Shown: positions 14,186 to 24,337 of the stretch, piece after piece
Position numbering within the stretch: position 1 is the stretch's first letter
How the letters are laid out: each line of letters starts with the position of its first letter
Assembly (NCBI GenBank): GCA_023957315.1
Contig: JAMLHE010000005.1
Location: 169,132-233,131 of the forward strand
Length of the DNA stretch: 64,000 nucleotides
Direction: 5' to 3'
Source of the DNA: Candidatus Kapaibacterium sp.
GTDB taxonomy: Bacteria > Bacteroidota > Ignavibacteria > Kapaibacteriales > UBA2268
The notes under the pieces: model-generated
The model's database searches: none
Told to the model about the DNA's origin: nothing
What the model saw: the letters and a program-made list of their open reading frames with translations, nothing else
Position numbers and translations under genes: made by a program

Positions 14186-15619
14186 ATGCAAATGCTTGAT
14201 GCTCATAAAAAGCAGTTTTTGTTCTCAGATAAATTGCTGATTGTCGGACTTATCCTTTCGAGTATTTTTTTCGCAGCGATAATATTAGCTTCGGTTTATT
14301 TTGATGTCATGCTTTATGTTTTGCCGGTTATTGCAATTGCCCCACTATTCTACTTTGTCACAGTAAAGCCGAAAATTTGGCTTTATACGCTTTTGGCACT
14401 TACGGGTATTTTCTTCCAAACAACCGGTGGCGGAATTTCGGCTATAGATGTTGTGATGGCAATATATTTCTTAGGCAGTATTCTTGCATGGTTCTTTCAT
14501 CGAATGTTTGTTATCAGAAAAAAAGTGGCTGAAAATATTGGTGATTGGTTAGTTCTCGCATTTTTCATCTTAATACCCCTGAATTTGATAATTGTCATAA
14601 TGAATGACGCAGACCCTGAGCTCTGGCTGCGTGAAACACTAATGATGGCAATTGTATTAATGTACTTCCCTATCCGAGATATTGTTCGTACCGAAGCTGA
14701 CATCAAGAAGGTCTTACTCGTTTTTGCGATTGTAATTGCCGGAGTTGGCACATATCAACTTTACGATTACTACATTAGGGTCACCGCCAAGATGGTTTAT
14801 GCTTATGAATTGATTCATTCGATGAGTACCAATCAAACTCTTTACACAGCAGCCTCATTGGTTGGTCTGATATTTTTGATTACAACTGAGAGCGTAAAAG
14901 TCAGGATTTTTTCAATAATTTTTACAGCAATGTCCGTTGCATTTTTATTTAGTACCTTTTCACGGACATTTTGGGTGATACTTGTTTTGTCGGTTTTTCT
15001 GATTTTTTTGATTGTACCATTTCAGAAAAAGATACGCATGGCTTTATCAATCGGATTCTTAGTCATTTTTATTGGCTCTTCGGCATTTTTGTTGATGAGA
15101 GATAATGTTACACTGCTTTATGAGGCATCGAAGAACAGATTACTTTCTTCAACAAAAGTTAGAGATGATATTTCATTAAGGTCAAGATTGATAGAATGGG
15201 AGCAGGTGTTGAATTTGATTTACGAAAACCCTCTCGGTGGAAACGGACTTGGAAAACATTTTCATTATTACGAACCGATTAGAATGCAGACCAAACATAC
15301 TTCTATCATTCATAACGGTTATTTGTTTCTGCCTTTTAGACTTGGTATTCCTTTATCGCTATTTTATTTTTCGTTTTTAACCTTCTATGTGTTCAAAACT
15401 ATTAATTTGTTGCCCAAAGCAAGAAGTGAATTTGAAAAGTCGCTTATTTACTCGATAATCGGGGTTTTCATGTCCTTATTTATATCAAATTACACAAGTT
15501 CGCAATTCTTTTATCGAGATGGAATATTTGTAACTGCAATGATAATTGCATTTATTTGTATTTTGGAAAGAATCATAAATCAAAAGAGTTTATCGGAATC
15601 AACGGCAGATGCAAATTAA
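14186..15619 (+). CDS. O-antigen ligase/polymerase family (Wzy_C) polytopic membrane protein
   Basis: About 10-12 predicted TM helices. Wzy_C-type motif HNGYLFLPFRLGIPL in a large periplasmic loop. Overlaps the mrdA start by 11 nt. Confidence 0.65.
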   Translation: MQMLDAHKKQFLFSDKLLIVGLILSSIFFAAIILASVYFDVMLYVLPVIAIAPLFYFVTVKPKIWLYTLLALTGIFFQTTGGGISAIDVVMAIYFLGSILAWFFHRMFVIRKKVAENIGDWLVLAFFILIPLNLIIVIMNDADPELWLRETLMMAIVLMYFPIRDIVRTEADIKKVLLVFAIVIAGVGTYQLYDYYIRVTAKMVYAYELIHSMSTNQTLYTAASLVGLIFLITTESVKVRIFSIIFTAMSVAFLFSTFSRTFWVILVLSVFLIFLIVPFQKKIRMALSIGFLVIFIGSSAFLLMRDNVTLLYEASKNRLLSSTKVRDDISLRSRLIEWEQVLNLIYENPLGGNGLGKHFHYYEPIRMQTKHTSIIHNGYLFLPFRLGIPLSLFYFSFLTFYVFKTINLLPKARSEFEKSLIYSIIGVFMSLFISNYTSSQFFYRDGIFVTAMIIAFICILERIINQKSLSESTADAN

Positions 15620-17498
15620 TCTCAGATATGCAGACAATACTTTTGAAAATAAGGGCAGAAAGCTGTTTCTAAAGGTTTTCATTATAGCAATTTTCTTGGT
15701 TTTCACCGGAAGATTGGCTCAATTACAGATAATCGAAGGCAAAAAATATCGTTCAGACAGTGAAGCACAAGCCATCAAAACTGTTAGAATAGAGCCATTT
15801 CGGGGTAATGTTTTTGACAGAAATGGCGAAATGTTGGTGCATAACGAGCCTTCATTTTCGGTGACTCTTACTCCAAATGATTTCAAACAGTCCTCTATCC
15901 CACTTTTGTGTTCGATATTGGAAGTTGATTCTGCCGAAATATCAAAATTGTATGAGGCAAACAAAGGTACATCGAAATTCATACCAATAAAAATCCACAG
16001 AGATGCTGATTTCAGGACAGTTTCGCTTATTGAAGAATATAGTGACCATTTGCCCGGAATCGAAATAATGATAGATTCGAAGCGGCTTTATGAATTTGAA
16101 GGTCATATGGCACATTTGCTTGGTTATACACGAGAAATTTCTAAAAGGCAACTTGCAAATAGTCCATTTTTATATCAAGGAGACCAAATTGGTCAATCCG
16201 GAATCGAAAGAACTTTTGACAGTGATTTGCGAGGTAGAGAGGGCATTCAGTTTGTAACAGTAAACAAATTTGGGCAACGAGTTGCAAGTTTTGATAACGG
16301 TAGAAGCGATATCCCTTCTAAAAACGGTTTCGATGTTCATCTTGGCATTGACAAACGATTGCAGGAACATGCCGAATTACTCCTTAAAGACAGGCGCGGC
16401 TCGGTTGTAGCAATCAATCCGCAAGACGGCTCGGTATTGGCATTAGTCAGCAAACCTGATTATGACCCACGTGATTTCAGCGGCAAAATTTCTTCGAGTT
16501 TGTATAATGGACTTATGAATGACCCTGCATCACCAATGTTGAACAGAGCAATTCAATCGCAATATCCGCCGGGTTCGACATGGAAAATGCTTATAGCGAT
16601 TGCTGCACTGCAGGAAGGGATAATTAACGAAAACACCACGATTTATTGCGGTGGTGGTTTGCAATACGGAGGCAGATTCTGGAAATGCCATGGTGCACAC
16701 GGAAATATAAGTGCCAGACGTGCAATTCAGACTTCATGCAACACTTATTTCTATACTTTGGGAATGAGATTAGGTATTGATTTGTTCGAAAAATACACAG
16801 ATATGTTCAGTTTCGGGCATAAAACCGGAATAGATTTGCCTCACGAAAATCCCGGACTTATCCCAACTCGAGAGTGGTTAGAAAAAAGATTAGGGAAGAT
16901 TAATTTCTCAGGTAGAATGGTAAATTATGGTATCGGGCAGGGCGAAATCTCCACAACGCCTTTGCAAATGGCGGCTTACACTGCAGCAATTGCAAATGGT
17001 GGCACTTACTACCGTCCCCGCGTTGTGACCCATATTCGGAATAATTTATCCAACAAAATGGAACCACTCGAACAATACGCAAGAAAACTTGAAATTGACA
17101 GTAAGATAATGGATTTAATCAAAAACGGTATGTCCGATGTGGTCAATCTTTCAGGCGGTACAGCAGCAATCGCTCGTATGCCCGATGTAGAGGTTTGCGG
17201 AAAAACGGGAACTGCACAAAACCCACATGGCAAAGACCATGCTTGGTTTGTTTGTTTCGCACCCAAAGAAAACCCAACAATTGCAATGTGTGTATTTATC
17301 GAAAATGCCGGATTTGGTGGAGCAGTTGCTGCGCCGATTGCAGCACAATTACTGAAGGCATTCTTCAATCCCGAATTATACGAAACTCCCGAACAACATA
17401 AATTGATGGCAATTACTGAAAATCCTGAAATTATTAATGATATGATTGAAGAAGTGATATTGGAAGAAATCTTAGATGTGATTGAAGAATCAGATTAA
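15609..17498 (+). CDS. mrdA: Penicillin-binding protein 2 (peptidoglycan D,D-transpeptidase)
   Basis: N-terminal TM. Dimerization region RGNVFDRNGEMLVHN. Transpeptidase motifs STWK (SxxK), SCN (SxN) and KTGTA. Confidence 0.85.
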   Translation: MQINLRYADNTFENKGRKLFLKVFIIAIFLVFTGRLAQLQIIEGKKYRSDSEAQAIKTVRIEPFRGNVFDRNGEMLVHNEPSFSVTLTPNDFKQSSIPLLCSILEVDSAEISKLYEANKGTSKFIPIKIHRDADFRTVSLIEEYSDHLPGIEIMIDSKRLYEFEGHMAHLLGYTREISKRQLANSPFLYQGDQIGQSGIERTFDSDLRGREGIQFVTVNKFGQRVASFDNGRSDIPSKNGFDVHLGIDKRLQEHAELLLKDRRGSVVAINPQDGSVLALVSKPDYDPRDFSGKISSSLYNGLMNDPASPMLNRAIQSQYPPGSTWKMLIAIAALQEGIINENTTIYCGGGLQYGGRFWKCHGAHGNISARRAIQTSCNTYFYTLGMRLGIDLFEKYTDMFSFGHKTGIDLPHENPGLIPTREWLEKRLGKINFSGRMVNYGIGQGEISTTPLQMAAYTAAIANGGTYYRPRVVTHIRNNLSNKMEPLEQYARKLEIDSKIMDLIKNGMSDVVNLSGGTAAIARMPDVEVCGKTGTAQNPHGKDHAWFVCFAPKENPTIAMCVFIENAGFGGAVAAPIAAQLLKAFFNPELYETPEQHKLMAITENPEIINDMIEEVILEEILDVIEESD

Positions 17499-17575
17499 AA
17501 ATTTATTTTAAATATTTTGTTTCCTTTTTACGTTTCATGTGTATGTAAGATAATTCTAAATTTATATATATATTT

Positions 17576-19840
17576 ATGGAGTTTAATATGCATCATTTCA
17601 AGTACCTTATTTCCGCATTAGCACTTGTTGCTTTTTTGTTCGTTTCATGCAGCGACAATTCGTCAAGCCCGGCTTTGACCGAAGATTTCACAGGTTTTGT
17701 GAAAAATTCCGAAGACCAAGCAATTGAAAATGCAAATATCGAAATATTCGGTTTGGAAGACAAATTGATTGCGAGCGATATCACAGATAAAGATGGCAAA
17801 TTCACTCTGACATCAATCCCAATCAAAAAGGAAGGATTGACTTACAGAGTCAGACATGCCGAATATGCCACAATCTCCGGAGACTTTGAAACATTTTACA
17901 ATGCACATAAATCTGAAGCCGGAAAATCTCCCGTTGTTTTCAAACTCCTTCAAGAAGATTCTTGCTGCGGAGATATGACCGTTCAAGTTTTAGATTATGA
18001 ATCCGGCGACCCGCTCGAAAATGTCGAAGTGAAAATTTCAAGAGGAAACGAATGGAGCGAAAAGAAATATACTGATGGCGAAGGCGTGCAAAACTTTGGT
18101 GCATTATGTGCCGGCAAACATTGGCTCAGATTCGCTCTCGAAGGCTACCAAGTAGTTGAAGATTATTTTGAAATCGTTGAGTGCGACACTTTGAATTTGA
18201 CAATTAAAATGAAAATCAAAGATGCTGATGAATGTTGCAACAACATTCTAAATTTCGTTGTCACAGATAAAGATGGAAATGCAATCAGCAATGCCAAAGT
18301 GAACTTATATCGTGATGGCAAGTTAGTAAAAGACGATAAAACTAATGAAGATGGCAAACTTACTTATAGCGAATTATGCAAAGGTAAATATACATTCGCT
18401 ATTTTAAAAGATAGCTACAAAGGAATTGAAGGATATCAAATCTTTGATTGTGAAGAAAATGTTACCGTTAACAAAACTTTAAGCAAGGAAGAAAACTTAG
18501 AATGTTGCGACAATACTTTAAATTTCATAATCAGTGATGAAAATGGCAATGCAATTAAGGACGCAAAAATCATACTTTACCGCAATGGTAAGGCTGTTCA
18601 TGATGGTAAAACAGATGACAATGGCAAAATCACTTTTGCTGAACTTTGCAAAGGAAAATATACCTATGCCATCCAAAAAGACACTTACAAAGGTGTTGAG
18701 GGATATCAAATTTTTGATTGCAAAGAAAACATTACAGTTGAAAAAACTTTGTATAAAGGCAATAATGAAGCATGTTGCGATAACAAATTGACTATTTTTG
18801 TCGGCGATGACGCCAATAATCCTTTAGCTAATGCAACAGTACTGCTTTACCGTGATGGGAAAGTTGCAAAAGAAGGGAAAACCGGCAATGACGGTTATGT
18901 TTATTTCGCTGAACTTTGCAAAGGAAAATATAGTATATTAATCAAGAGCGAAGGTTTCAAACCGTTTGAATTCCATCATACTTTCGGATGCGAAGAAGAT
19001 ATTAAATACAATAAGACTTTGGTTAAAGACCAAGGCGAAGATTGTTGCGGAGTGTTGAAATTGACTGTAATTGATAAAACTACAAACACTCCAATTGCCA
19101 ACGCAGAAGTCAAAATCACACGCGCTGATAATAAATTCTACGACATTAAGAAAAGCGGCAATGACGGTAGTGTCGAATTCACTAAGCTTTGCATGAGCAA
19201 ATACTGGGTTCGCGTAGCTGCTGAAAATTACAAAGTTGTTGAAGATTATGTTTATATCGAAAATTGCGATAAAGCTGTTGAAAAAACTATCAAATTGGAA
19301 TCAAAAAACAACACTGAATGTTGCGACAACACTATCAATTTTATCGTAAAAGATGCCGATGGCAATCCTTTGAGCGGAGTTAAAATCAAGTTGATTAAAG
19401 ACAATACAGTAAAGAAAACTTTGGAAACGCAAAACGGTACCGCTTCTACAGGCAAAATCATGTGCAAAGGAAGCTATAAAGTTGTGATGATGAAAGAAGG
19501 CTATCAAACAATTGAATTTCAAACAAGCGTAAATTGCAACGAAGACATCACAATTGATAAAAAACTCGAAGGTGGAAAATGTTGCGATGCTCAAATCAAA
19601 ATCGCTGTTAAAGATGCCGATTCTGAAGAATCGTTAAACGGTGCTAAGGTCAGACTTTGGAAAGATGGCAAAGTTGAACGCGAAGGTACAGTCGAAAACG
19701 GCTACGTTTGGTTTAAAGAACTCTGCGAAGGCAAATACGGCGTTGACATTATGTACGAAGGATACAATGGAATGGAATTCCAGTATGAAATCAGTTGCAA
19801 AAATGACAATTATTTAGTAAAGAAATTGAGCAAAAAATAA
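17576..19840 (+). CDS. Lipoprotein made of ~7-8 tandem Cys-containing CarboxypepD_reg-like repeats
   Basis: Lipobox LFVSC. About 90-aa repeats with the pattern CCDN-LNF-V-D-DGN-I-AK--LYRDGK...DGK-TF-ELCKGKY...GYQIFDC-EN-TV-KTL, with four conserved Cys per repeat. Confidence 0.7.
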   Translation: MEFNMHHFKYLISALALVAFLFVSCSDNSSSPALTEDFTGFVKNSEDQAIENANIEIFGLEDKLIASDITDKDGKFTLTSIPIKKEGLTYRVRHAEYATISGDFETFYNAHKSEAGKSPVVFKLLQEDSCCGDMTVQVLDYESGDPLENVEVKISRGNEWSEKKYTDGEGVQNFGALCAGKHWLRFALEGYQVVEDYFEIVECDTLNLTIKMKIKDADECCNNILNFVVTDKDGNAISNAKVNLYRDGKLVKDDKTNEDGKLTYSELCKGKYTFAILKDSYKGIEGYQIFDCEENVTVNKTLSKEENLECCDNTLNFIISDENGNAIKDAKIILYRNGKAVHDGKTDDNGKITFAELCKGKYTYAIQKDTYKGVEGYQIFDCKENITVEKTLYKGNNEACCDNKLTIFVGDDANNPLANATVLLYRDGKVAKEGKTGNDGYVYFAELCKGKYSILIKSEGFKPFEFHHTFGCEEDIKYNKTLVKDQGEDCCGVLKLTVIDKTTNTPIANAEVKITRADNKFYDIKKSGNDGSVEFTKLCMSKYWVRVAAENYKVVEDYVYIENCDKAVEKTIKLESKNNTECCDNTINFIVKDADGNPLSGVKIKLIKDNTVKKTLETQNGTASTGKIMCKGSYKVVMMKEGYQTIEFQTSVNCNEDITIDKKLEGGKCCDAQIKIAVKDADSEESLNGAKVRLWKDGKVEREGTVENGYVWFKELCEGKYGVDIMYEGYNGMEFQYEISCKNDNYLVKKLSKK

Positions 19841-19866
19841 TTTTTTTCATTTTCTATAAAACTTTT

Positions 19867-19904
19867 GAGTGCCATTACGTCTTAAGTGATGGCACTCTTT
19901 TATT
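19867..19904 (+). terminator. Rho-independent terminator after the repeat lipoprotein
   Basis: gagtgccat-(13 nt)-atggcactc hairpin followed by TTTTATT. Confidence 0.6.
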
Positions 19905-19919
19905 ATTTCGCGAGTAAAT

Positions 19920-22900
19920 ATGAGCATGAACATAAGATTTTTAATTGCATTTGCAATTGTGGCATTATCAATTCATTTAAATCCCTCAGTTGAACTTCAA
20001 TCTGCAGAAAGTAACTCCTACATCATCAAATACAATGGCAATCTTAAGCAAAGGTTCGCTACAGTTAATTTCGATTTAGAAGTGAAGAAAGTTTTTCGGA
20101 GCGAAATGATTAATACCGAAAAAATTTCAGACCAATTAATGAGTGCGGAAGCTCAAAACTTGCTTAGATTGCTTGGCAATTATTACGAAGTAAAAGTTAC
20201 AAGAGACGAATTTGAAAAATTGAATGAATTATTCCAAAATGATGGTAGCCTCATTAGCATTACGCCCAATCATATTTATTCCATTAATAAAATCGCCCAA
20301 ACAAATGATTCACTATTTTCTCAACAGTGGAATTTGAAGCAAGTCAATGCTCTAAAAGCATGGGAAAAGGCTGACGGCAAAGGCGTAATTGTCGGCGTAA
20401 TTGATACAGGTATTGACTTTGAACACCCCGATTTGATTGGCGGATTGTGGATAAATTCGAAAGAGGATATAAATGGTAACGGACGATTTGATGCTTGGAG
20501 TGTGAATGAAATCCGAAACGGTGTTTCGGGCGATTTGGACGGGATTGACAATGATGGAAACGGCTTTATTGATGATGTGATAGGCTACGATTTTGTGGAC
20601 CAAGATGTGGTAAATTTCGGTGACTATCGAGACCCCGACCCAATTCCCGAAGATGAAGGCGACCATGGTACAAGTGTATCGGGTATAATTGCAGCATCTA
20701 CTAATAATGAAATTGGCATAGCAAGTGTAGCACCCGGTGCAAGGATTTTGACGTCTAAAGCGTTTGATATATCGGGCAATGCCGAAGCCGATGACATTGC
20801 GAAAGCTATCATTTATGCTGTGCTGAACGGTGCAAAAGTCCTGAATTTCAGCTTTGGTGAGCGCTACGAATCGCCCATAATGTACGATGCAATCAAATTT
20901 GCTTACAATGCCGGATGTGTCATGATAACGTCTGCCGGAAATACAGGCTGGTTTGGTGAGCATTATCCATCAATATATCCTGAGGTTATCAACGTGGGAG
21001 GAACGAATTCCATGGGTGGCAGATATGGCAGAAGCAACTACGGTTCTTTCATAGATTTAGTTGCCCCGGGCGAACAAGTCATGACAACTGTCGCAGGTGG
21101 CGGCTATGCCAATGTTTCGGGTACTTCAATTGCCGCTCCGCACGTCTCGGCTGTTGTGGCGATGCTTTTTGAAATTGACCCGACTTTGAAACCGAGCGAA
21201 ATTCATGGGATTTTAGCGGCAACATCTTACGACATCGGTGATGAAGGTTGGGATGTATTTTTCGGTGCAGGAATTTTAGATGCTTACGAAGCAGTTAATT
21301 TTGTCGGTTCATCGGTATTTATGATTGATTCCCCAACAAATGAAACTGAATTTTACGCAGATAGAACACCAATTATTGATATTTACGGTTCTGTTGCTAC
21401 TCCCCTTTTCGATAGCTATGTAATCAAAATTGGCAGAGGAATTTTGCCGGAAGTTTGGACAGATGTTTATACGGACAATCGTCAAAAAATCAACGACAAA
21501 CTCGGCTCAATTGATATTAGCAATTTAATGACCGGAAAATATAATGTGTCATTATATGTAAATCTCAAAAATAAGAAGACAATCGAACGCAGGATAACTA
21601 TAAATATTACAAATGAAAATGATAGCGCCAAATTTGAGTATCTCAACGTCGTGTCGGCATTTGCAAATGATAAAAGAGTGATATTAATCGGTGCCAAAAC
21701 ATCCAAAAAAGGCACGATGACAGTGAAATTCAGAGCTAATGAAAGTGATGAATATACATATCTGAAGCAATTCAAACATAAGAGCATTTATCATTCCATC
21801 GAAATATTTTCAGGGCTAACTCCCGGGCAAAATTATCAAGCAATAGCTGAAGTGATTACAAATTCCGGAGATACTTTGACTCGAGAATTCGAATTTTCGG
21901 TTGAAAATGATGTTTGGACGACTGAAAATTTCGACCCAAAACCCTATTCGATTCATCGCTCATACATAAATAACAATCATTATGATTTATATGGCGACGG
22001 CAATCCGGTATTTGTTGTAAATGATTTGTCAAGTTTAAATATCGGGACGACTAAAATTTATCAGTACCAATCCGGTCAACTCGTGCTCAGAGATACATCA
22101 GTAGCGGCGTGGATACCTGTCGGTATGGGTGATTCGAACGGCGATGGTATTCCTGAAATTTTTGCAACTGCCCAATTTAATTCCGTTTCGGAGCAAGGAA
22201 ATTTCTTAGGCGATAATCCTTTTGCTAAACAAGTTTTCAAGAATCCGGTCGGAACTTCGTTTTGGGGCGAACAAATGTATGACCTTGACGGCGATGGTAA
22301 AAAAGATTTAATCGGGTATCGTTACGAAGTCGAGAACCGCCACTATCTTGTGTATGAGAATGTAAACGGCGAATACAAAATTAAAACAACTGCAGAATTG
22401 CCGGAAAATCTGAGGAATGTACCAATCACAAGAAATTCTGCAATTGCTGATTTGGACGGTGACGGGAAATTAGAATTATGCTTTGTGAACACAAATAGCA
22501 ATGTGCTTATATATCAATACGAAAACGGAACTTTCAACATTGAATGGGTTGATTCTACAAAAAAATCAAATTCAAATCAGTTCCTGACGACAGCCGATAT
22601 TGACGGCGACGGGATTCCGGAAATCATCCATATGTTTGCCGAATCGGAAATATTGTTCCAAAATAATGAGGCTCCGTCGAATATTTGGACAGCACGAGTT
22701 TTGAAATCAACTGCACATAACAGCTACGAGGAAATTTGGAAGGAACATTTTTATGGCGTGAAACAAGGCTTCGTAAGGACACTTTTCAGCTACAGAAATG
22801 GTATTGCAAGCGGAGATTTGGATGGCGAACCGGGCGATGAGATAATTTTCTCACCTTTCCCGAACCTTTATGTTTACAGGTATAACAAGCAAAGCAAGGA

Positions 22901-24227
22901 ATTTGAAAAATTCTGGTGGTACCCGTCAACGTTGTCCAATTCAGCATTAATCGCAGATATAGATGGAAATGGCATGAATGAAATCGGATTCACGACATTC
23001 AGTTCGATGCGCTTTTTCGAGTACCGCAAGGGATTCGACGGTCCCAAAATGCCAACCAATTTCAAAGGTGTAGCACTTGACGCCGTAAGCGGCAAATTAA
23101 CTTGGGATATGATGGATGATGCCGAAATGTATTTGGTGTATCAGTTAGTTCAAGATGGCAATAATGTGAATGCAATTTTGATAAAAGAAACTACCTTTAA
23201 TGAACTGATAATTCAAGGGCTGACACCAGGCGGTACTTACGAATTTGTCTTGCGAAGCTTCAATTCCACTAAGCCCGACAAATTGAGTGATTACACAGAT
23301 GTTGCAACTATCACTGCTATTGCTCCAGCAAAATTTATAAGTGCGGAAAGCACCGATAAGAATGTCGTAGAGGTAGTATTCAGCGGATTTTTACCTCATA
23401 ATCATATCGAAGCCGGCATCTTTCTCTTATTTGACGATGAAGGTAATTACTTATCAGCAAGCTCGAGCACAATTACAAGCTATGATTCAGTCGCTCTCGT
23501 TACATTTCCTATTAATTTTGAACCGAATAAAAACTATAAACTCGTGATTAATCCTTTTTTGGATAGATTTGATAATTTAGTGACATCAGATTCTACATTT
23601 TTCACTTATAGCACTGAGCCTCTCGAAGACGAAATGTTTTTGGTTAAACTCATCTTTTTATCGCAAACTTTATTGCAATTAGAATTTTCGGAAGCTGTTG
23701 AATTGGAAAGCTCATCAAATAGGGCAAATTATGTGATGAAGCCCTTCGGCGAAGTTCTATTTGCAGAACGCAGCAATACAGATTCCACATTAGTATTGCT
23801 CAATATAAGCCAAAGTCTGAGAGACAGAGGAGCGAGGGGATTTGACTACACAATATCAGCGTATAATATCAACTCCACTGACGGCACTCCAATTACAAAG
23901 GGTCCGGGCAATACACTCGGTTTCGTGATTTCATCGGACGACCTTATAGACCCTTATGTTTTCCCGCACCCGATTGTACTTTCCGAAGAGCCAAAGATAT
24001 TTTTTGCGAATTTGACTCAATTCGCTACCGTCAAAATCATGAGCCTCGACGGAGTAGAAATAATCAGCTTGTTGGAAAACAACGGCAATGGTGGTGTTGA
24101 ATGGGACGGTAGAGACAGACACGGAGCACTTATTCCACCGGGCATTTATACTTATGAAGTCAGCGGCACAAACTCAGAAGGTATCGAAGTTTTTGCGAAC
24201 AAGAACAAATTTGTTGTGTTGCCATAA
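19920..24227 (+). CDS. Subtilisin-like serine protease (S8) fused to FG-GAP/VCBS-type repeats, FN3-like region and C-terminal FlgD-Ig/T9SS-like sorting domain
   Basis: Catalytic triad contexts VIVGVIDTGID (Asp), HGTSVSGIIAA (His) and GTSIAAPHVSAVVAML (Ser). Repeats DLDGDGKKDLIG, DIDGDGIPEII, DLDGEPGDEIIF and DIDGNGMNEIGF. C-terminal ...EWDGRDRHGALIPPGIYTYEV... Ig-like sorting-type domain. Signal peptide present. Confidence 0.85.
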   Translation: MSMNIRFLIAFAIVALSIHLNPSVELQSAESNSYIIKYNGNLKQRFATVNFDLEVKKVFRSEMINTEKISDQLMSAEAQNLLRLLGNYYEVKVTRDEFEKLNELFQNDGSLISITPNHIYSINKIAQTNDSLFSQQWNLKQVNALKAWEKADGKGVIVGVIDTGIDFEHPDLIGGLWINSKEDINGNGRFDAWSVNEIRNGVSGDLDGIDNDGNGFIDDVIGYDFVDQDVVNFGDYRDPDPIPEDEGDHGTSVSGIIAASTNNEIGIASVAPGARILTSKAFDISGNAEADDIAKAIIYAVLNGAKVLNFSFGERYESPIMYDAIKFAYNAGCVMITSAGNTGWFGEHYPSIYPEVINVGGTNSMGGRYGRSNYGSFIDLVAPGEQVMTTVAGGGYANVSGTSIAAPHVSAVVAMLFEIDPTLKPSEIHGILAATSYDIGDEGWDVFFGAGILDAYEAVNFVGSSVFMIDSPTNETEFYADRTPIIDIYGSVATPLFDSYVIKIGRGILPEVWTDVYTDNRQKINDKLGSIDISNLMTGKYNVSLYVNLKNKKTIERRITINITNENDSAKFEYLNVVSAFANDKRVILIGAKTSKKGTMTVKFRANESDEYTYLKQFKHKSIYHSIEIFSGLTPGQNYQAIAEVITNSGDTLTREFEFSVENDVWTTENFDPKPYSIHRSYINNNHYDLYGDGNPVFVVNDLSSLNIGTTKIYQYQSGQLVLRDTSVAAWIPVGMGDSNGDGIPEIFATAQFNSVSEQGNFLGDNPFAKQVFKNPVGTSFWGEQMYDLDGDGKKDLIGYRYEVENRHYLVYENVNGEYKIKTTAELPENLRNVPITRNSAIADLDGDGKLELCFVNTNSNVLIYQYENGTFNIEWVDSTKKSNSNQFLTTADIDGDGIPEIIHMFAESEILFQNNEAPSNIWTARVLKSTAHNSYEEIWKEHFYGVKQGFVRTLFSYRNGIASGDLDGEPGDEIIFSPFPNLYVYRYNKQSKEFEKFWWYPSTLSNSALIADIDGNGMNEIGFTTFSSMRFFEYRKGFDGPKMPTNFKGVALDAVSGKLTWDMMDDAEMYLVYQLVQDGNNVNAILIKETTFNELIIQGLTPGGTYEFVLRSFNSTKPDKLSDYTDVATITAIAPAKFISAESTDKNVVEVVFSGFLPHNHIEAGIFLLFDDEGNYLSASSSTITSYDSVALVTFPINFEPNKNYKLVINPFLDRFDNLVTSDSTFFTYSTEPLEDEMFLVKLIFLSQTLLQLEFSEAVELESSSNRANYVMKPFGEVLFAERSNTDSTLVLLNISQSLRDRGARGFDYTISAYNINSTDGTPITKGPGNTLGFVISSDDLIDPYVFPHPIVLSEEPKIFFANLTQFATVKIMSLDGVEIISLLENNGNGGVEWDGRDRHGALIPPGIYTYEVSGTNSEGIEVFANKNKFVVLP

Positions 24228-24337
24228 GTAAATTCTGCGATTCATGTGTTACGTCTTTGTTACAAACTGACGTGACATTGCATATTCTTTGTGAACTTTG
24301 CGGTTAAATTGAATTTAAGAAAAATGAAATAACACTC

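Follow-up and report, generated by a model that had tools for sequence, protein, structure and literature searches.

Covalent cross-links in the stalk domains of surface proteins bring thermal and proteolytic stability, and disulfides in stalk immunoglobulin-like domains are reportedly frequent in Gram-negative phyla (PMC12617251; PMC10619420). The described systems that serve as comparators for the protein of this work are the CnaB-type stalk domains with isopeptide or ester bonds in Gram-positive pilins, MSCRAMM B-repeats and TIE proteins (6fwv, 8bdw, 3kpt, SdrD B), and the prealbumin (transthyretin)-like domains of family PF13620, among them the carboxypeptidase D C-terminal domain and the SusC N-terminal extension, with which it has a predicted beta-sandwich fold in common. 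We analyzed a stretch of 64,000 nucleotides from Candidatus Kapaibacterium sp. (contig JAMLHE010000005.1, positions 169,132 to 233,131; the window hereafter). On its forward strand, as for all features given below, a single long open reading frame (ORF) at 17576–19840, of 754 amino acids (aa) counted from the first ATG, encodes a putative lipoprotein made of such domains in tandem. Our reading, to which we give a probability of about 0.6, is that the protein is a lipid-anchored rigid rod of the cell envelope, composed of eight prealbumin/CnaB-like domains, seven of them stapled by disulfides, probably surface-exposed and not tied to the neighboring protease.

Architecture of the window lipoprotein

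The true start of the lipoprotein is probably ATG 17588, which gives a protein of 750 aa, because GGAG lies 6 nucleotides (nt) upstream of this codon, homologues begin here and the NCBI annotation likewise has 750 aa; residue numbers in the text keep the 754-aa frame. The start and the signal peptide (MHHFKYLISALALVAFLFVS followed by C) occupy 17588–17650. Direct reading of the sequence gives MHHFK-YLISALALVAFLFVS-C, in which the lipobox LFVSC comes after a Lys-containing n-region and a hydrophobic h-region, with the predicted lipid-modified Cys at aa 25. A positive n-region, an h-region and a lipobox of the type [LVI..][..][AGS]C within ~35 residues are all present in the window protein. They bear out the first-pass annotation, which had called it a lipoprotein, and support its assignment as a signal peptidase II substrate.

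Behind the signal peptide stand one Cys-less CarboxypepD_reg domain and then seven Cys units of 87–92 aa. Cut at each of its seven CC dipeptides, the translated sequence falls into units of 90, 90, 90, 90, 92, 87 and 89 aa, and the spacing of the Cys residues is CC-x46/47-C-x23/24-C in all seven. The total of 29 Cys is made up of one in the lipobox and four in each of the seven units. The Pfam family PF13620 (CarboxypepD_reg) matches the protein in eight stretches (E = 7.7e-63, 209.3 bits vs a gathering cut-off of 32.3), overlapped by matches to the related beta-sandwich families SpaA, SdrD_B, CarbopepD_reg_2 and Big_1; only beta-sandwich families were matched. The eighth stretch is the Cys-less, membrane-proximal domain that separates unit 1 from the signal peptide (17681–17953, aa ~36–126), which gives a weak match with the hidden Markov model (HMM) of the units. 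The tandem CarboxypepD_reg-like repeats described in the first-pass annotation are thus present, and its count of ~7–8 Cys-bearing repeats is to be corrected to seven Cys units and one Cys-less domain.

Unit 1 (17954–18223, aa 127–216) is of a distinct, orthologously conserved subtype, which we designate 'CCG'. Units 2 (18224–18493, aa 217–306) and 3 (18494–18763, aa 307–396) are the closest pair, with identities of 63% in protein and 73% in DNA. They are followed by unit 4 (18764–19033, aa 397–486), by the 92-aa unit 5 (19034–19309, aa 487–578), which is like unit 1 (40% identity), by unit 6 (19310–19570, aa 579–665) and by unit 7, which with the stop codon closes the ORF (19571–19840, aa 666–754). 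The protein ends with unit 7, and scans with Pfam and NCBIfam gave no match to a Por_Secre_tail or C-terminal sorting domain of the type IX cargo kind. The four-Cys pattern was not found anywhere else in the 64-kb window.

Identity between whole units ranges over 24–63% in protein and 52–73% in DNA. Tandem Repeats Finder at a minimum score of 30 reported no tandem array at positions 17000–20500, and a repeat search at the DNA level gave only patches of 14–54 nt, with 60–100% identity at a spacing of ~270 nt; the earlier description of the repeats as obvious in the DNA was overstated. Divergence of this degree excludes collapsed or expanded reads as the origin of the array, and two independent assemblies keep the seven-unit architecture at 83% and 76% identity. 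An assembly artefact, the hazard named with the first-pass annotation, is thus excluded. Judged by their sequences, the repeats are ancient.

The lipoprotein family, its predicted fold and its probable cysteine pairs

A word-indexed search returned 15 proteins of the same build at 28–100% identity, the 100% match being a protein of a Candidatus Kapabacteria metagenome-assembled genome (MAG). When 1.84 billion representatives were searched exhaustively with a profile of 67 units, 59,728 matches were obtained at E ≤ 1e-3, mostly generic CarboxypepD_reg proteins. The family statistics are based on 168 proteins drawn from the searches. Four-Cys units are carried by 101 of them, the family members, with lengths of 474–1230 aa and 5–12 Cys units each, so that the repeat number does vary among relatives; the remaining proteins are of giant size, with repeats that have no Cys. 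In the 101 members, signal, N-domain and units leave no stretch of ≥45 aa uncovered, and this absence of any further domain agrees with the beads-on-a-string arrangement proposed at first. A lipobox-type [x][x][S/A/G]C is located at aa 15–45 in 94 of the 101, the others being truncated or having mis-called starts. The N-terminal Cys-less domain is found in every aligned member, with A49, G70, P78 and H90 conserved, and alignment of 710 homologous units confirms the conserved Cys spacing, as the skeleton CC...C...C is present in 95–96% of them. With the family defined by a lipobox, a Cys-less domain and at least four units of CC-x45–48-C-x23–25-C, and nothing else, the window protein belongs to it.

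Fourteen genome loci were recovered, all from MAGs: nine are labelled Kapaibacterium, Ignavibacteriae/-ota, Chlorobiota or Bacteroidota, one is unclassified, and four carry labels that resemble bin mislabels. Family loci L012, L014 and L025 come from MAGs labelled Desulfobulbaceae (JAGXRP01) and Hyphomicrobiales (CAZWXI01, CAZJAH01). These bins or labels are probably wrong, because L012 and L014 are syntenic with the Kapabacteria window genes and up to 96% identical to them. From the sequences at hand, in which the genome matches are mostly so labelled, the family is best described as uncharacterised and restricted to Kapabacteria/Ignavibacteria. Literature searches that combined CarboxypepD_reg with disulfide, and Kapabacteria with lipoprotein, found nothing relevant. 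Annotation pipelines have named P0007, P0010, P0089 and P0169 'protocatechuate 3,4-dioxygenase beta subunit' or '5-hydroxyisourate hydrolase-like'. Such enzyme names are false and reflect likeness at the level of the fold, the prealbumin-like sandwich; cluster members elsewhere are labelled 'hypothetical', and ~100 sequence clusters could be renamed in genome annotation.

Prediction by AlphaFold2 (AF2) of unit 2 with a 67-sequence unit alignment gave seven beta-strands at a predicted local distance difference test score (pLDDT) of 97.2 and a predicted template modelling score of 0.86; units 2–4, predicted from single sequence, reached a pLDDT of 88.3. The predicted fold is a seven-strand prealbumin-like beta-sandwich, which is CnaB-like as well. 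Its structural neighbors are pilins, MSCRAMM B-repeats, the SusC N-terminal extension and the SlaB S-layer stalk, while in a phmmer search of PDB sequences the sole match was a marginal one, to PucM (E = 0.47). The isopeptide triad of Lys, Asn (Asp) and Glu is not conserved in the 710 units, in which no strand-1 position exceeds 48% Lys and no last-strand Asn/Asp is conserved. With the four Cys of a unit numbered C1 to C4, DSSP analysis of the unit 2 model places the CC dipeptide just before strand 1, C3 in the two-residue beta4–beta5 turn and C4 in the beta6–beta7 loop.

The pattern of Cys loss indicates which of these residues belong together. Four Cys are present in 617 of 727 units, two in 54, five or six (the core four with extras) in 34 and none in 17, the N-domains; one or three Cys occur in five units. 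One Cys of the CC pair is kept in every one of the 54 two-Cys units, together with C3 (23 units) or with C4 (31 units), and neither C3 with C4 alone nor the CC pair alone is found in any of the 54. The sequences therefore argue firmly that C3, and likewise C4, has a Cys of the CC dipeptide as its partner. In the HMM register, C3 survives with C2 at 25:1 and C4 with C1 at 26:7 (Fisher p = 4.6e-9, a value that overstates independence, as many two-Cys units descend from few events). The Cys located 10 residues before the conserved strand-1 Asp always partners C3, and the partner of C4 is the neighboring Cys, found on the N-terminal side of the C3 partner in middle and last units and on its C-terminal side in the 'CCG' unit-1-type domains. 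For the middle units we infer a nested pairing, C1–C4 and C2–C3. The four invariant Cys and two disulfides per domain of the first-pass annotation are in this way well supported, if indirectly, by Cys parity and pairwise co-loss across the 727 units, and two disulfides are probably formed in each of the seven distal domains.

The lipoprotein evolves faster than its surroundings. Compared with two close relatives, its nonsynonymous rate (dN) is 0.147 and 0.094, or 4–20 times that of the neighboring genes (0.007–0.059; murB in L012, 0.143), and the ratio of dN to the synonymous rate is 0.26 and 0.12, vs 0.02–0.11 for the neighbors. Its identity falls to 27–31% where the PBP2-type transpeptidase encoded upstream keeps 50% and FumC 81%. 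Fast change on a fixed skeleton of Cys, Gly and Tyr, as the alignments suggest here, is typical of exposed structural proteins. Whole units also appear to have been replaced or duplicated: unit 4 of P0003 (L001, aa 392–481) is a copy of the unit-2 type of the same protein, whereas unit 4 is of another kind in the window protein and in P0002, a contrast that points to replacement of the unit or to gene conversion. In P0004 (L008) two adjacent units at aa 303–482 are identical but for a single residue, through a recent duplication or a MAG assembly issue.

Genomic context and rival explanations

By Pfam, the genes upstream of the lipoprotein encode Wzz, a Wzy_C-family membrane protein and a PBP2-type transpeptidase, and the gene downstream encodes an S8 subtilase/FG-GAP protein. 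Besides the window clade, at least 10 other loci have the co-directional block TldD/PmbA–Wzz–Wzy_C–PBP2–lipoprotein, with a PBP2 that is ~50% identical; six loci of four distinct lineages (L004, L006/L007/L015, L009, L010, L025) have a family member and no PBP2 nearby. The spacer between PBP2 and lipoprotein genes measures 77 nt in the window, 75–90 nt in 11 of 12 loci and 125 nt in L011, and holds no strong hairpin; the region from 17300 to the start of the lipoprotein gene yielded no terminator-like site. A weak sigma-70-like promoter match, TTTACG-16-GATAAT at 17527–17554 (9/12 matches), is no better than shuffled sequence. In the P0008-type clade (L005 7924–8000; L016, L018–L023) the spacer of 75–79 nt is well conserved and carries TATATTTG and then TAA ~30 nt before the ATG, and the window spacer has TGTGTATG at the matching position. 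The element TATATTTG, found in many spacers and of the TAnnTTTG type, presumably resembles the Bacteroidetes −7 promoter box, and by this sequence the lipoprotein gene may have its own promoter. Within the block, the gene for Wzy_C (O-antigen ligase/polymerase family) shares 11 nt with the PBP2/mrdA-like gene, at the start of the latter (14186–17498), and the order Wzz–Wzy_C–PBP2 is kept in at least 10 Kapabacteria/Ignavibacteria loci. No SEDS/RodA gene lies beside the window PBP2, an unusual pairing for an elongation-type transpeptidase.

On the downstream side, an intrinsic-terminator-like hairpin with a T-rich tail is located at 19867–19907 (hairpin 19867–19897; 12-bp stem with 6 GC pairs, 7-nt loop), within the 80-nt gap that follows the lipoprotein stop codon and leads up to the S8/FG-GAP start at 19920. 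The S8/FG-GAP gene lies 3′ of the lipoprotein only in the close clade of the window (L001–3, L008, L012–14; PBP2 80–97% identical) and is not beside it in ~15 other loci, all more distant. In L011, fumC comes immediately after the lipoprotein gene, whereas in the window the S8 gene and murB stand between the two; the arrangement in L011 suggests insertion of the S8 gene in the clade of the window. From the sequence, lipoprotein and subtilase appear to be separate transcription units, and an operon of the two was rejected on the basis of the hairpin and of the adjacency limited to the close clade. At the C-terminus of the S8 subtilase/FG-GAP protein itself (19920–24227, 1435 aa), the sole match is a weak FlgD_ig-like one (E = 3.6e-4, below cut-off), with no clear Por_Secre_tail. 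Loci L001, L003 and L008 have, between the S8/FG-GAP gene and murB, an ORF of 336–343 aa without Pfam match (L001 16628–17659), in place of which the window has only 110 nt (24228–24337).

Two explanations other than a passive rod take the elongated form of the protein as their premise. A fibrillar adhesin, in which one or more distal units would bind a substrate or cells and the stapled units would be the stalk, finds points in its favor in the tandem, cross-linkable, stalk-like domains behind an anchor, in the fast evolution, in structural neighbors that include pilins, MSCRAMM B-repeats and the S-layer stalk, and in the distinct, conserved terminal unit subtype CCTA...GLCAPATY...EC with which many relatives end. 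The last unit of the window protein, however, is not of this APATY subtype, no recognizable adhesive domain occurs in any of the 101 members, and 750 aa is short for a typical fibrillar adhesin, so that we hold this explanation to be unlikely. The other explanation turns the rod inward, as a periplasm-spanning, Lpo-like rigid strut that would work with the upstream PBP2 (mrdA-like) transpeptidase. The commonly cited width of the periplasm lies near the ~25–30 nm estimated for the rod, the lipoprotein is the last gene of the recurrent PBP2 block, and the short spacer lacks both a strong hairpin and a terminator-like site. Set against these points are the loci where PBP2 is absent, a unit number that varies from 6 to 10 even in PBP2-linked members and would make a poor ruler, the fastest evolution of any gene in the block, and the TAnnTTTG-type box in the spacer of many loci, which suggests an independent promoter. 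We regard such a strut as distinctly improbable, and give slightly less credence still to its extension, namely that, should the conserved place of the gene directly behind PBP2 have functional meaning, the family would be a new class of disulfide-stapled periplasmic struts in Kapabacteria/Ignavibacteria, which would position or regulate an elongation-type peptidoglycan synthase as an LpoA/LpoB analogue of different fold.

Two further explanations question the staple or the independence of the protein, and both strike us as very improbable. If the four Cys of each unit were a site for Zn, Fe or Cu, the array would be a metal-binding or redox chain. The Cys should all sit at the same end of the sandwich (N-terminal segment, beta4–beta5 turn and beta6–beta7 loop) and could cluster there, and weak CopK matches exist below the curated cut-off (Pfam 23.8 bits at a threshold of 23.8; NCBIfam 15.1 vs 123). 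Yet the degenerate units have lost their Cys strictly two at a time, and only certain combinations are seen (54 two-Cys units vs 5 odd ones, and never C3 with C4 kept), which is expected of bonded pairs and not of a four-ligand site. Moreover, neighboring residues on an extended segment face opposite sides, and across the 710 units neither His nor Asp nor any other ligand is conserved along with the Cys. The remaining explanation, a scaffold or partner of the giant S8 subtilase/FG-GAP protein, had been advanced in the first-pass annotation as a protease-associated scaffold. In its favor, the two genes adjoin on the same strand with a gap of 80 nt in the window and its close relatives; the absence of this adjacency in all more distant loci, with L011 passing directly to fumC, and the strong terminator-like hairpin between the genes speak against it, and this part of the annotation is not upheld.

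The proposed stapled rod and known stalk domains

The lipid-anchored rod would be assembled as follows. After export and lipidation, the two disulfides of each domain would pin the N-terminal linker to two hairpin loops at the base of the domain. The C1–C4 bond would tie the linker that enters the domain to the point where the last strand begins; a pulling force would then bypass the fold, and the oxidised domain would as a consequence be inextensible. The short linkers would be stiffened and shielded from proteases, with the disulfides doing the job of the isopeptide and ester bonds in Gram-positive pilins and stalk domains. At ~3.5–4 nm per domain, an assumed value, the rod would be roughly 25–30 nm long. 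It would most likely reach outward from the outer membrane to the cell surface and act there passively, as a stalk, a spacer or part of a coat; its outermost unit may make contacts, and the surface stalk of the first-pass annotation is a plausible form of this reading.

For surface exposure, the polar, acidic mature N-terminus is of interest, as it resembles the lipoprotein export signal of Bacteroidetes (SusD-like, MucG and SiaC constructs), which belong to the same superphylum. Residue +3 after the lipid-modified Cys is D or E in 73% of the members, and the window protein reads C-S-D-N. The minimal export signal defined by experiment consists of a polar or positive residue and then at least two acidic residues at +2 to +5 after the lipid-modified Cys (PMC5080379).

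Several observations weigh against the stapled surface rod. Two or more acidic residues at +2 to +5 are present in only 35 of 94 members, with one in 45 of 94, and the mature N-terminus of the window protein, CSDNSSS, has a single one. The connectivity of the Cys is derived from co-loss patterns, many of which go back to a few ancestral events (22 last-type and 17 first-type units), and the register of the unit-1-type domains implies C1–C3 and C2–C4 in place of the nested pairs. DSSP analysis of the three-unit model marks C1 and C3 as isolated bridge residues, which is compatible with either pairing. Finally, no binding or enzymatic domain is present, and the biological role is read from the form of the protein.

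The finding alone opens no major biological question. It does indicate that a diderm lineage may harden a tandem stalk of CnaB/transthyretin-like domains with disulfide pairs that start from a vicinal CC motif. Units of ~90 aa, with structure prediction of very high confidence and with natural two-Cys variants, could offer a model system or a construction element for redox-switchable rigid protein linkers.

Comparison with known systems sets the family apart. The generic PF13620 family is Cys-free (1519 of 1575 units in 70 non-family proteins have none of the four Cys), whereas CC...C...C is present here in 95% of units, and here the domains make up the whole protein behind its lipid anchor. 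Compared with the CnaB-type stalks, the window family lacks the triad, and its proposed cross-links are disulfides at the opposite, N-terminal strand end; the anchor is a lipobox and not LPXTG, there is no adhesive head, and the family occurs in a diderm host from the Bacteroidota/Ignavibacteria group. Further comparators are CLIPPER/DUF11 (CTTC motif), the Mobiluncus 47I domain and FimP/FimA, which also have disulfides within repeated stalk domains of surface proteins. In those systems a single local disulfide stands beside an isopeptide bond, whereas in the window family the two proposed long-range disulfides, both from the vicinal CC, would be the sole cross-links. The finding suggests convergence, in which Gram-positive isopeptide or ester bonds and the paired disulfides of this family would be separate routes to inextensible, protease-resistant surface rods.

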